In this document: one piece after another, positions 5,506-54,517 of the stretch
Layout of the letters: the number at the start of each line of letters is the position of its first letter
How positions within the stretch are numbered: the stretch's first letter is position 1
Source of the DNA: Eledone cirrhosa
Lineage: Eukaryota
Assembly (NCBI GenBank): GCA_964016885.1
Contig: OZ024743.1
Span: 254,510,001 to 254,574,000, forward strand
DNA length: 64,000 bases
Reading direction: 5' to 3'
Program-made: the position numbers and the translations under genes
The notes under the pieces: model-generated
What the model was told of the DNA's origin: nothing
Seen by the model: the letters and a program-made list of their open reading frames with translations, nothing else
The model's database searches: none

Positions 5506-7759
5506 ATATATATGTATATATATATATATATATATATATATATATATATATATATATATATATATATATATATATATATATATATATTTATATATATATT
5601 TATATATATATATAAATATATATGTATATATATGTATACATATATATATGTATATATATGTATATATATAAATATATATAACTATATATATAAATATATA
5701 TGTGTATATATATAAATATATAAATATATATGTGTATATATATATATAAATATATAAATATATATGTATATATATATATATAAATATATAAATATATATG
5801 TGTATATATATATATATAAATATATAAATATGTGTATATATATATATATGTATATATATATATATAAATATATAAATATATATGTGTATATATATATATA
5901 TATAAATATATAAATATGTGTATATATATATATAAATAAATAAATATATATGTGTATATGTATATATAAATATATATATATATATAAATATATATATATA
6001 AATATATATATATATAAATATATATATAAATATATATGTATATATATATATATATATAAATATATATATAAATATATATGTATATATATATATATATATA
6101 TATATATATATATATAGATATATATATATAAATATATATATAAATATATATGTATATATATATATATATATATATATAGATATAGATATATATAAATAAA
6201 TATATATATATATAAATATATATATATATATATATATATAAATATATATATATAAGTATATATGTATATATATATATATATATATATATATATATATATA
6301 AATAAATATATATATATATAAATATATATGTATATATATATATATATAAATATATATATATATATATATAAATATATATGTATATATATATATATATATA
6401 TATATATATATATATATAAATAAATATATATATATATATATAAATGTATATATATATATATATATATAAATACATATATATATATAAATATATATGTATA
6501 TATATATATATATATATATAGGAACGAGTAAGACCCCGACGGCTGAGCTCATGCCGTTTCGACGACTATTTCTGGACTAAATGAAAATTTATCCTGGTAT
6601 TTGAATAGCCGTGCTTCTCAAGGGGTAATTCCATATATGGCCAAAGTGTTTGTCACAGGGATTGGTCAAAGTTAGTAGTTGAGACATAATCATTTTATGA
6701 TGGCAAATTAGTGGGGGGAAGGGGTAGCTAAACCTGCCAGTAGGAGAAAGAAGGACAGGGGTGGAGTAGACCCATTCATGCGTTGGTAGTGACGGCTACA
6801 GCTGGGCGTGAGGTCAGAGAAGATACTAGGGAGCGGGAACGGGAGGAAGTCGAAACGGTAGGTAGAACAATGAAGGGTAAAAATATAAAGAAAATACTGA
6901 GAGTGTTAAAAAGCGAATAAATGTAAAAAACAATAAACAATTTCTGGTGACTACGACTTAAGTCTATCGTTATTGCTAGGCTAAATAAGTAAATAAATAA
7001 ATAAATAAATAAATAAGTAAATAAATAAATAAATAAATAAATATAAACTAGGTGGGACGGAATAAAAAAGAGACCCTTTTAGGAGGTATAAGTACGTATA
7101 TCATGCGGTGACGGGTCAACAAAGGAGGGGCCAAAATACTAAAGAAACTACTACGAAATAATTAAAAAAAGTTTCTACCCCAAGCACAAGGCCAGCAACC
7201 ACCCAGTGCAAAAAAGTAAACTAGTACGAAAAAATAATTCAGAGTCCCGAAAAAGGATACTAATACTAACTCTAAGGGTACCGCCACGGTACAAAAGTTC
7301 TTATAAAAGCTACATGAAAGTTCGTACCAAGTAAAAGTAAAATACGGAAAATTAATTCAGAATCAGAAAAAAAAATGAATAAATAAATAAACGAGAAATT
7401 AAAGCAAAAATGCCACTGAGAAATATAGAATGCACGGAAAAACGGGGCAGCGGTCGGATAAGGGGGTCAAGTATCCGGGGTCTAACACATCTGCTATAAA
7501 AAGCGGAGTCGGCCAAATCTATCATAGAATAGGGGAAGGGGGTGGGGGTGCTGAGGCTACAAAGGACCGAGGGGCTCCCTCGGTTGGGCGACAAAAAGAT
7601 GACAAAGGAAAAGAACTGGGGTGGAAGGACTAGGGAGGGATGGGGGGAAGAAGGAAATATACAGGAAGCGATAAAAAAATATAAAAGAAGATCTTACGTC
7701 TCCCTTAGCAAGCAGGAGTTACCCGATACAAAATCGGCAAGTGGGGTGTTATAGCCCTA

Positions 7760-8926
7760 GTCTAACCCCCCCCCCCCCGGGTCATTATGGGGTTTGAGGG
7801 CGAGGTAAGTCCTACGCAATCTGTGTTTACATGCAGTAACCAGTTCATTTTTCTTGTTTAGGAGTTGGTCCGTCGAAAACAGCATTTGTAAAGTTTCCTC
7901 CGAGCATAAATTGCACGGACGGCGTCCTCCCGAGTAAGAGTTGGCTCTGGACAGTTATCTCCAAGTGAGATCATACGTAATGTTGTTATCCTTGAGGTCC
8001 CATATGTGGGCCGAAAGTGTAGTGGCGTGACACCGGGCCGGGTTTCGGAAGGTATGTCTGTGTTGGTATAGCCGGGTCTTGAAGTCACATGCGGTTAATC
8101 CTATATAAGCTTTGTTGGAGGTGTCCGTCCTCACGTTGCACTGGTAGATCACATTACGATCTCTGCATCTGTTGTCGAGGGGGCAAATGGATCCATCAGG
8201 ACAGTTGCACCTCCTGGTCGGCTCTCCACTGCTATTTAGGTTATTTCTTCCATCGGGGTTGAGTTTTTTGTTGTTGGAGGAGACGATGTTTTGTGCGAAG
8301 TTAGGTGTAGTGCTGTAAGAGAGTTTGATGGTATTTTTGTTAATTATGTTGTGGTAGCGGTGTTGTAGTGGGAAGTGTTTTTCAATGAGCCTAAAGAATA
8401 TTTTTCCGATGGGAGTTGTCACCTCGGCGTTGTGGGGAGGATTGAACCATGTTACATTGCGTGAGCGGCGGTGTCGCCTGCTGGTTCCGCTAATGGGAGC
8501 TGGACAGTAGGATATTTCCTCCCGGAAACCACTCCCCTTGAGAGCCTGGTTGTTATAAGGCGCATGTTCATCGAATATCTGCTCATTAGCTGACAGACGG
8601 GATATGCGGAGGGAGATGTTTTTGACCAGGTTGTTGGTGATGTTCCTACGATGGTTAGATCGGCGGTGGATGTAGTGCAGGTTGTCATTAGGTTTCCTGT
8701 ATGGGTAGTACAGGTCATTATCGAGGTCGAGGGTAACGTCCAGGAAGTTTACTCGGGTCAGGGACGTTTGTAGGGTTATTTTAAATCCCCAGTCGCGGAA
8801 GAAGCTGATTAATTGTTTACGGACCCGATTTGTACTACTGGGGTTGTACCCTTTAAGGGTAAGGAGCCCATCATCACGGTACAATCCACCACCGAATGCA
8901 GGAAACATATCGGTGAGTTTGGCCAT
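7760..8926 (-). pseudogene. PLE RT C-terminus + GIY-YIG endonuclease, 5'-truncated, premature TAA at 7955
   Basis: GLYRDDGL, NFLDVTLDL, WFNPP, CNC..CPL..C, IY..YIGLT..FKTRL..H. Confidence 0.92.
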
Positions 8927-52800: not shown

Positions 52801-54517
52801 CAACACACCTCAAGGGAACACCTTACACCACAACTCCACACTCAATGTTCCACCCTATCTTAACACAATTGGTGACATCTATCTAAAACCTTTTACCCTA
52901 GAAATATCCCCATGTACACCTACTTTTAGTATAATTACTTTCAATTACATAGACTGCATTATATCACTATATAATTATATGTAAACTTTAAACACCGAAT
53001 TCAACAATGAATTATTTGTGCAAATGTTGTTGTATGTATGGAGTGCTATCATTAGATAAATAGAAGATTAAATTATTAACATAAAAGAGCTGTATAACCT
53101 ATATGTTGAGTACAATGAATTATGTACAAGTGGTATGTGAGTTATACATACATGTATAACTTGATAGACAGATTAATGACATTGTAAGTGAGAATTGTTT
53201 TTTGGTCTACCCTAGAGATATTTAACTTTGCCATGCAATCAGCCATACGCTGACCCAGAGCTTACCAGGGGTTATATATAGACGTGGTTCTATTAGGACC
53301 CTGTCAGGTTCCGTGAGTAGACTACATTTACAAAGAATTTTGATATGGAGATCTGACACTTCGTATGGAATATTCAGTTGTAGCAGTCTATGATAGGGAG
53401 TAATCATCCTAATATAGATACCTTTAGTACTTCATGAAAGAGTAGACTGTAATTTAAAGATAGGATACTTAAATTTGGAAACTGTATATAACAGTATATA
53501 TAAGGGACTCGATTGAGACACCTTTTAATGTACGTTGGAATAATAAATTTAGTTATAGAAATCAGCTAGTTACCTCCCATCACGCATTAACTACCCTTAA
53601 TCACACACATACTTCCGGAAAATAAAACGATGTAAATTCTCGCAACGGAAACAACCTGCTCTATAAAATTGGATTAAAGAACATTGAGCCGCAACAAGCT
53701 GTAATAATTTAACTTAATACATCAAACATCCAATACTGAATCCTCGTTAATTATGTGAAGGACATATAAACTATATATTACGTTTCCTGAATTGTGAAAA
53801 TGGTGGTGTATACAAAACCATAACATTATTTTGCTTCTCATTTATCATATTTCTCTACACACACGCTTCCTTATCATACACAAAAAATACTTTACCAAAA
53901 CAACCTCCATAATACTCTTGAATACCCGCTTAAAGTGCTTGTATTGCATATAACACCTTGCCGCACAATAATCATATATAAATAAGACACACGTGCATGC
54001 CCCACGTGTAACTATTGCATGCAATAACTACTACAACTGACTAACAAACTATCCATTATCTACGTTAACTGCCGATGTTGTATTTTAATTTTAATTTTAA
54101 TTTTGCTTTGATTCTGTTTTAATATGATTTTAATTTTTGAAATTAAATTGCCATTCAGAAATAATATAATGGATGTCACCCCACTGTGCATCGATATATA
54201 CATATGTATCTGTATGTCTTTTGTGTTGGAAAGGAGGTCATGTATGTAAACAAACATTGAAAAATGCTCCGAAGAATCCAAACCTCGGTTTGGATGAAAC
54301 AATTGTGAGCTAATATATGGTTTGAACAGAACTTTGATTCATGTGAATTCTATATAACTGCTCTGTAGAACAACTGATGTTATTACAATGAGCTATTTAT
54401 CTTACTGGTAATAAGGTAGTAATTAATTACTGTCTTTCACTGTTTAGGGTTTAAAATATATATAACTATAAAAAGTTTTAGTATATACATAACCATAAAT
54501 AGTATCCTTAATACTAT
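49805..54517 (-). mobile_element. 5'-truncated decayed Naiad (52672->49805) with ~1.8-kb inverted 3' copy (52685-54517)
   Basis: NFLD, FFNPPF, CNCRSNRICPL..CL, YIGS, CNICLLE; 49805-51473 inverted at 52685-54352. Confidence 0.9.

Follow-up and report, generated by a model that had tools for sequence, protein, structure and literature searches.

Paired end types and a duplicated hairpin in Hydra-clade Penelope-like elements inserted into (TA)n arrays of Eledone cirrhosa

Why do inserted elements in one and the same genomic region end at two different positions of their own sequence, and why does an inverted copy of the 5′ part mostly run past the end of the main copy? This question is raised by a stretch of 64 kb (31% GC) from Eledone cirrhosa (contig OZ024743.1, positions 254,510,001 to 254,574,000), in the following called the window, in which (TA)n arrays and inserts alternate. 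The inserts are Penelope-like elements (PLEs), with the Hydra clade predominating, and many consist of a main arm joined head to head to an inverted arm. An earlier reading of the letters, here called the original prediction, had proposed two priming events on opposite strands of (TA)n at two fixed RNA positions. We found one end at each of two internal sites, a short and a long one, in each of the inserts counted in the window, and a duplicated hairpin at a near-fixed distance past both sites in Hydra elements. Our most far-reaching interpretation, to which we assign a probability of roughly 0.45, is that Hydra PLEs encode a programmed form of twin priming, in which the duplicated hairpin would dock the two subunits of an enzyme dimer on a single transcript; each subunit would measure 8 nt to its start, with both target strands being extended simultaneously.

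Short and long ends of the inserts

The flanks of the main TA arrays were listed and 26 segments between arrays were aligned with themselves. The count covers 13 head-to-head inserts in which both outer ends can be seen. Not included are C1, C2 and F1, which lost one end to a fusion, segment 1-370, which runs off the window, and two joins of different families; C1 and C2 follow the bias described below and F1 is a near tie. All 13 inserts have one short and one long end, and the stretch between the two sites, the tail, measures 66–167 nt (Table 1). The short-ended arm reaches further 5′ in nine inserts, the long-ended arm in two (G, H), and two (D, Q) are ties (p = 0.03). Wherever there is a tandem unit (K, L, M, G, H and the G001 families introduced below), the tail is the sequence that comes next after the short site; thus, both ends are internal to a longer template.

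The original prediction had started from pairs such as 6521 and 47078, which both end at GTTCC/TATA, while their inverted partners at 9433 and 42706 extend 80 nt further to CCTTCGT/TATA. All pairs that it had listed are real, at positions within 1–3 nt of those given, including 712/4451, 15892/18401, 49806/54517 and 30415/29388 (70, 98, ~165 and ~115 nt), and so are the inverted arms that contain the tail only (21787-21863 with 77 of 98 nt, 15085-15250, and 20715-20819 with its outer end lost). The exception it had named, the element at 32232-37573, was confirmed, with a main copy longer by 102 nt. Missed had been a second exception (19109-19726, main copy longer by 87 nt), two further regular cases (37595-38868 with a tail of 167 nt, and 47142-47393) and the near-symmetric palindromes 4726-5503 and 23234-23501, each with one end per type.

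For comparison outside the window, G was aligned with 59 of the 120 homologues listed, which gave 79 metagenome loci and 23 genome-contig loci; those of the 120 that carry an organism name are two from Argonauta, in line with a cephalopod host, and a scan of viral contigs found no relative. One assembly, G001, is filed as a bacterium, and many of its contigs (e.g. L082, L085, L086) carry animal-type PLEs and microsatellites. Because of this content, the PLE contigs are likely contamination with animal host DNA. When 24 G001 stretches were compared with 12 long-ended references, ends were found at 0 or at −59 to −65 (−80 in one family); a single near-identical copy, from the largest family, deviates with an end at −39, where it has an internal join. 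Both ends are visible in ten inserts of G001 and in L076, and 10 of these 11 have one end per type, with a polarity of 7 to 2 and one tie.

Pooled, 23 of 24 inserts combine a short with a long end (p about 1.5e-6 at 50:50), and in 16 of the 20 asymmetric inserts the long end belongs to the arm with the smaller 5′ reach (p = 0.006); arm lengths were read by hand, and since families are shared among inserts, the p-values are optimistic. One end of each type is a firmer rule than orientation. A long end on the inverted 5′ copy survives as a bias, while four reversed cases reject it as a strict rule. A polarity specific to each family was rejected as well, because two G001 families show both polarities, and so were chance ends. 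The tabulation of termini suggested along with the original prediction, made here for the window and the G001 contigs, gave ends that are bimodal in every multi-copy family and linked to orientation by a bias that flips within single families. TA-like bases at the ends, as noted in the original prediction, were found at most of the sites: at 12 of 19 independent end sites the sequence that follows in the element shares at least 3 nt with the TA target (background 11%, p about 8e-8), and at five it shares at most 1 nt.

Table 1. Inserts of the window with their arms, end types and hairpins
Insert	Position	Strand	Main arm and general features	Inverted arm and tail	Hairpin motif
K	712..4451	-	Non-autonomous 467-bp hammerhead tandem unit; 712-3621, short end	3621-4451, 70-nt tail	Hydra motif absent at both sites
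D	4726..5503		Near-symmetric palindrome; short end left	Long end right, tail ~66 nt	Absent at short site
A	6521..9433	-	Hydra-type PLE; 6521-8931, short	8931-9433, 80-nt tail	Hairpin 1, 9362..9385 (+), ACTC...GAGT variant, 8 nt beyond short site
C1	14514..15250	-	3′ end lost at fusion to element E	15085-15250, tail only, begins at short site	
J	15892..18401	-	Hydra-type; short at 15892	18251-18401, 98-nt tail	Hairpin 1, 18318-18342
H	19109..19726	-	Long, 87-nt tail	19666-19726, short	Hairpin 2, 19549-19567
F1 + C2 (fused)	19959..21164		F1: 311-bp inverted pair, short end 19959; C2: main arm ends short at 21164	F1: long end cut off; C2: 20715-20819, tail only, outer end lost	
J2	21781..21964	+	88 nt, short end	21787-21863, 77/98 tail bases	Inverted arm stops within hairpin 1
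Q	23234..23501		Perfect-centre palindrome; short end right	Long end left, tail ~100 nt	Absent at short site
L	29378..30415	+	Non-autonomous tandem unit; short at 30415	29388-29603, tail ~115 nt	Hairpin 1, 29885-29907, GTTC...GAAC variant
G	32232..37573	-	Long, 102-nt tail	37442-37573, short	Hairpin 1, 36930..36951 (-), 8 nt beyond short site, downstream of hammerhead core 37018-37042; hairpin 2, 36834..36851 (-), 7 nt beyond long site, before first ATG
M	37595..38868	-	~590-bp tandem unit; short at 37595; 29-nt templated filler	38802-38868, last 67 of 167 tail bases	Hairpin 2, 37998-38014
B	42706..47078	+	Hydra-type PLE; 44632-47078, short; 13-nt duplication at junction	42706-44631, 99.3% identity over 1846 bp, 80-nt tail	Hairpin 1, 42754-42777
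F2	47142..47393	+	192 nt, short end	47142-47205, tail only	
C	49806..54519	-	Hydra-type PLE; 49806-52683, short	52683-54517, tail ~165 nt	Hairpin 1, about 54360-54393

The twin hairpins and their distance to the ends

In Hydra elements, two tandem copies of a bulged hairpin (GCUC-Y...R-UH-GAGC) lie between the ribozyme and the start codon. In DNA letters, GCTC...GAGC opens the tails of unrelated families, and the second copy follows past the long site. The motif was counted in 47 loci with at least 180 nt upstream of the open reading frame (ORF), out of 61 with N-terminal coverage: at least two motifs were found in 22, one in 12 and none in 13, several of which look 5′-truncated. Among the controls, at least two motifs occurred in 1 of 2350 shuffles and in 5 of 188 ORF windows. 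In 25 loci chosen for two motifs, the order is hammerhead core, 48–62 nt, hairpin 1, hairpin 2 and ATG, with the core present before hairpin 1 in 18. Here the hairpins are spaced by 55–83 nt (median 64), in agreement with the G001 tails of ~60 nt; in the window, spacing and tail are 100 and 102 nt in G, and about 168 and 167 nt in M. With one hairpin at a near-fixed distance past each end, the tail length is the hairpin spacing. This near-fixed distance, together with the bimodal ends of multi-copy families, supports the two fixed positions of the original prediction.

For the analysis of the stem, inner pairs were not used in selecting motifs, and they were counted from the motif ends because loop lengths vary, which made a MAFFT alignment unusable. 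With a 3′ bulge of 2 nt (TT, TC or TA), the first inner pair is Watson-Crick in 50 of 50 cases (C-G in 34, T-A in 16), the second in 32 of 45 and the third in 24 of 31, values reached by none of 20000 shuffles; the shuffles ignore kinship, and the mean column identity of the proteins is only 36%. Under other bulges, the first pair is formed in none (0 nt and 1 nt), 4 of 50 (3 nt) and 11 of 45 cases (4 nt). Compensated outer pairs are present in the window as well, with ACTC/GAGT in A, B, J and F and GTTC/GAAC in L. G-U pairs are rare in the stems.

A motif lies 5–17 nt past 26 of the 33 ends with visible continuation (four of them visible through a close homologue), at a median of 8 nt and with 24 within 5–11 nt, compared with 7.7% of background positions; the loose motif of this count was widened after the variants of the window had been seen, which has to be held against the figure and the reading built on it. 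An automatic scan of the loci other than G001, from whose 21 rows nine unchanged internal TA runs and two alignment artefacts were dropped, found the motif 6–13 nt past 8 of 10 ends, one of which (L016) is shared with the set of 33. Rfam holds no family for the hairpin, and no match to it was obtained in the window or in nine loci.

Two further matches to the motif, at 25990 (-) and 61415 (+), lie in repeats; the segment 61134-61302 recurs at 61910-62082. A Hydra family with the same hairpin and a 63-nt tail (L217:3566-5915, L222:5160-5710) is inserted in (CATA/TATG)n instead of (TA)n. A single unit at 21188-21671 has its 5′ end abutting TA at the start site, 8 nt before the hairpin, and L216:74-2629 is a single unit of tail, ORF and tail with its 5′ end abutting TA at the start site. 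Two copies (L211:3752-3901, L016:715-800) have a 5′ end near the 5′ edge of hammerhead stem I.

Twin priming and its alternatives

Published papers are drawn on here as far as their covered passages go. For Poseidon PAc of Anolis (Frangieh et al. 2024, PMC11167929), these describe an enzyme that cuts and extends both strands and is predicted to form a dimer, and a reverse transcriptase (RT) that initiates in vitro at two internal RNA sites, which are the tail boundaries. The idea of two sites in the original prediction is thus largely anticipated in print, and its priming on opposite strands would fit both the geometry of the inserts and these in vitro data. Each arm reads as a complementary DNA (cDNA) begun at its TA junction, with the arms on opposite strands. 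Because of the PAc data, the two identical signals per transcript and the one end per type in an insert, we favour, at about even odds, a putative dimer of the RT-endonuclease that would hold a single RNA by its two hairpins and, from it, prime the two strands of a nicked (TA)n target. When transcription reads through a tandem locus, the RNA would run from the ribozyme over short site, hairpin 1, long site and hairpin 2 to the start codon. One subunit would bind each hairpin and begin copying ~8 nt to its 5′ side, with base pairs between the 3′ TA of the target and a UAUA-like stretch of the RNA as an aid. The cDNAs from opposite strands would then converge and be end-joined, often via short fillers. 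The enzyme at the long site would trail the one at the short site on the same template and usually stop first, which would produce the polarity bias, while an early fall-off of the leader would produce the reversal.

At the inner joins, short stretches are duplicated or filled in from a template (13 nt in B and L, 29 nt in M), which agrees with end joining. The arms overlap by 53–1846 bp in most inserts and are non-overlapping only where one is a tail-only arm. As to register, both inverted units of K carry a haplotype unique to the 3′-most of its six full main units, and the inverted arm of G equals the 3′ pseudo-long terminal repeat (pLTR) at two of three sites.

Several findings speak against the priming of both strands from one RNA. 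One site of K near the junction is out of register, and the inverted arm of L matches an internal unit rather than the 3′ unit (~4 diagnostic sites versus 1). Head-to-head joins of different families exist at 26276-28066 and 40562-41030, which one RNA could not give unless they are deletion fusions. One G001 insert has two short ends, and many inserts have a single arm ending at either site, so that an insertion does not require two primings. If arms are ranked by absolute length, the bias loses its significance (13 to 9, p = 0.26). Also, 7 of the 33 ends are without a motif (two each in K and N, one each in D, Q and E), and K, N, D and Q are two-ended all the same. Finally, a stretch copied twice over up to 1846 bp needs strand displacement, which is assumed here. 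With respect to the two mixed joins themselves, the first connects a short-ended Hydra main arm to a long-ended D arm, and the second connects an E arm to a nearly tail-only F arm via a 47-nt palindrome; they represent either two RNAs in one event or deletion fusions, which neighbouring inserts of the window do show at 14514 and 20715.

Part of these points would be resolved if the same two hairpin-set starts were used but the arms came from two separate RNAs, the first nick being served mostly at the short and the second at the long site. Strand displacement is then not needed, and the mixed joins, in both of which the shorter arm is long-ended, the register mismatch in L and the single-arm inserts of both end types are all accommodated. 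We nevertheless regard two RNAs as rather unlikely, as they do not by themselves account for one end of each type in 23 of 24 inserts, and the mixed joins may be two events, given the fusions just mentioned. Moreover, the two arms are 100% alike in B and 95.5% in A over ~420 nt, compared with 86% between A and B, although age alone could suffice for this. Unlikely, too, is that the ends are cut instead of primed, with the GIY-YIG endonuclease nicking a DNA intermediate at internal TA-like sites set by hairpins in single-stranded DNA and the tail left by resolution. The end sites resemble the TA target, covariation is blind to RNA versus single-stranded DNA, stem G-U pairs are rare, PMC8557442 attributes the tail to endonuclease-mediated resolution, and the D. 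virilis tail is needed for endonuclease recognition of plasmid DNA, as reported in PMC11167929. The tail boundaries of PAc were, however, mapped as RT start sites on RNA in the latter paper, and the long end of G and the ends of R1, Z and L076 share only 0–1 nt with (TA)n and yet stay 6–8 nt from the hairpin; such a constant distance suits a ruler better than a cut-site sequence, even if cutting would still be compatible with it.

A single priming at the long site, followed by fold-back of the cDNA and self-priming, with the return strand stopping at the short site by annealing to the target TA, is very improbable. It was proposed in the form of self-priming for PLE inverted repeats in PMC3846280, and the perfect or near-perfect palindrome centres of D and Q, one tie in G001 and the four reversed cases agree with it. 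Yet under fold-back the long-ended arm should never reach less far 5′ than its partner, and it did so in 16 of 20 inserts; nor can this route yield tail-only long arms beside a longer short arm or short-ended inserts with a single arm. As a general route, fold-back is largely refuted by the tail-only arms; it could persist as a minor one. Within programmed twin priming, we also considered that tail-only arms arise when the trailing enzyme collides with hairpin 1, since several of them stop at or inside it; short arms are often equally short, though, and TA microhomology could favour that junction.

Element content, known systems and implications

One PLE type is the source of the coding remnants in A, B, C, G, J and the insert at 26276 (tblastn). 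G is nearly full-length, with an open frame of 830 codons (34305-36794) and a frameshift near the C-terminus, ahead of the last CxxC and CxH. According to PMC8557442 (Craig et al. 2021), the marks of the Hydra clade are RWK, DKT, a CxCx5C linker, CxxC/CxH in place of CCHH, a hammerhead in the pLTR and insertion into (TA)n. The protein of G has RWR at residue 39, where the consensus of its homologues has RWK, DKT at 130 in place of DKG, YRDD, CNCRVSANC (the CxCx5C linker) at 747 and a C-terminal YIG motif at 781; A, B, C and J share the linker and the YIG motif. CxxC and CxH stand near the end (in B as PCNLC and ACKH; in G, beyond the frameshift, as FCNLC and SCPH), and CCHH is absent as judged by eye. 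The pLTR of G contains a canonical hammerhead core that scores 30.3 bits against a gathering score of 34, A and B only a degenerate core judged by eye, and the insertions are in (TA)n. By the protein motifs and the (TA)n target, and by a likeness of G to Hydra-1_Obim seen by eye in the supplement of PMC8557442, the coding elements would classify as Hydra-clade PLEs. Pfam gave no family for 11 of the 12 frames of the window that were searched, those of G, A, B, C and J among them. Sequence words of family B occur in 18 of the 22 runs listed, and at least half of them in five; small shares were disregarded.

In K, L, M, H, N, D, Q and F, tblastn found no coding remnant; several of these non-coding units have hammerhead cores. 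Since the hairpin occurs in L, M, H and F, they are taken to be probable passengers of Hydra elements, while K, N, D and Q, which do not carry it, were kept apart. The 467-bp units of K at 712-3621 alternate between two variants, and in the 3′-most unit the change from one to the other extends across the predicted hammerhead cut site, which would agree with a dimeric RNA copied by rolling circle or with a later duplication of a 934-bp dimer. Related to K is N, a 424-bp hammerhead unit present in two single-arm inserts (39514-40288 and 57297-57546), one with a short end and one with a long end that lies ~60 nt beyond it. Instead of the Hydra motif, both K and N have a hairpin rich in AT, placed just inside the long end. 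A different PLE is element E (9710-14515), with a DKS motif, an Asn/Thr-rich insert, a 758-bp pLTR and no Hydra hairpin past its end; on the 5′ side it is fused into the 3′ end of C1, and ~35 nt were lost there. A canonical PLE in (TA)n at 47494-49563 has a Pfam match to GIY-YIG, an endonuclease of CCHH type by eye and no inverted arm. Fragments at 41641-42280 and 55080-55441 lie beside a short repeat family and a weak tRNA match (55860-55923); they resemble the C-terminal part of an ORF of the long interspersed nuclear element (LINE) type, and Pfam gave no match for the fragment 41641-42280.

In LINE-1 twin priming, one RNA is primed from two ends of the target, and the product is a head-to-head inversion with microhomology at the join; its second site is opportunistic and the pieces barely overlap. 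In the PLEs analysed here, by contrast, both sites are fixed, 55–167 nt apart, and arms duplicate up to 1846 bp, so that the LINE-1 pattern of non-overlapping inverted and direct pieces was not found. The PLEs of the window work like this process without being members of it.

The asymmetry is a longer form of the known PLE tail. With the Hydra clade of PMC8557442, the inserts share partial tandems and inverted 5′ copies. Tails of 30–40 bp at either end are given there, compared with 66–167 nt in the window and about 60–80 nt in G001 and L076. The main text of that paper contains "hairpin", "stem-loop" or "stem loop" nowhere, while hairpin 1 is visible at the 3′ end of the Hydra-2_Amil consensus in its supplement. 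Penelope of Drosophila virilis has a 34-bp repeat (PMC2377424), and in Adineta one inverted pLTR has a 31-bp tail (PMC3846280). Both share the optional extension at one inverted pLTR, but their tails are shorter and called optional, and the passages covered contain no count of end types and no sequence signal. Penelope units flanked by a repeat in direct orientation resemble locus L216.

Shared with PAc are two internal starts that bound the tail and a stem-loop at the start region. The PAc starts lie within the ORF, in an AC-rich stem-loop, and are described as non-homologous to the cut DNA (PMC11167929), whereas both Hydra starts lie upstream of the ORF, each with its own conserved copy of the hairpin and most with TA microhomology. 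Inverted copies and the pairing of end types are not addressed in the main text of PMC11167929 as covered. Neither a twin hairpin nor a count of end types appears in the covered parts of PMC4209133, PMC7229834, PMC8969392 and bioRxiv 10.64898/2026.07.22.740005. The literature search as a whole found no description of the twin hairpin or the pairing; older subscription papers and the supplementary figures of PMC11167929, which may contain a structure of this kind in PAc, lay outside it. New here are the rule of one end of each type and, in the Hydra clade, a covarying hairpin that is present twice and keeps a near-fixed distance to either end.

PMC8557442 calls the origin of tails and inverted copies in PLEs an open problem, and the parts covered of PMC11167929 place two starts without a defined signal, for which the hairpin (~17–35 nt in most copies, present twice and covarying) is a candidate. 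If true, programmed twin priming would unite the tail, the inverted 5′ copy and their pairing, and the tail would be the footprint of the dimer. For annotation, the motif can serve as a boundary marker, and it flags non-coding units that are likely to ride on Hydra proteins. PLE RTs are the sister group of telomerase, and for this reason an RNA element that would set the start of copying may be of wider interest.

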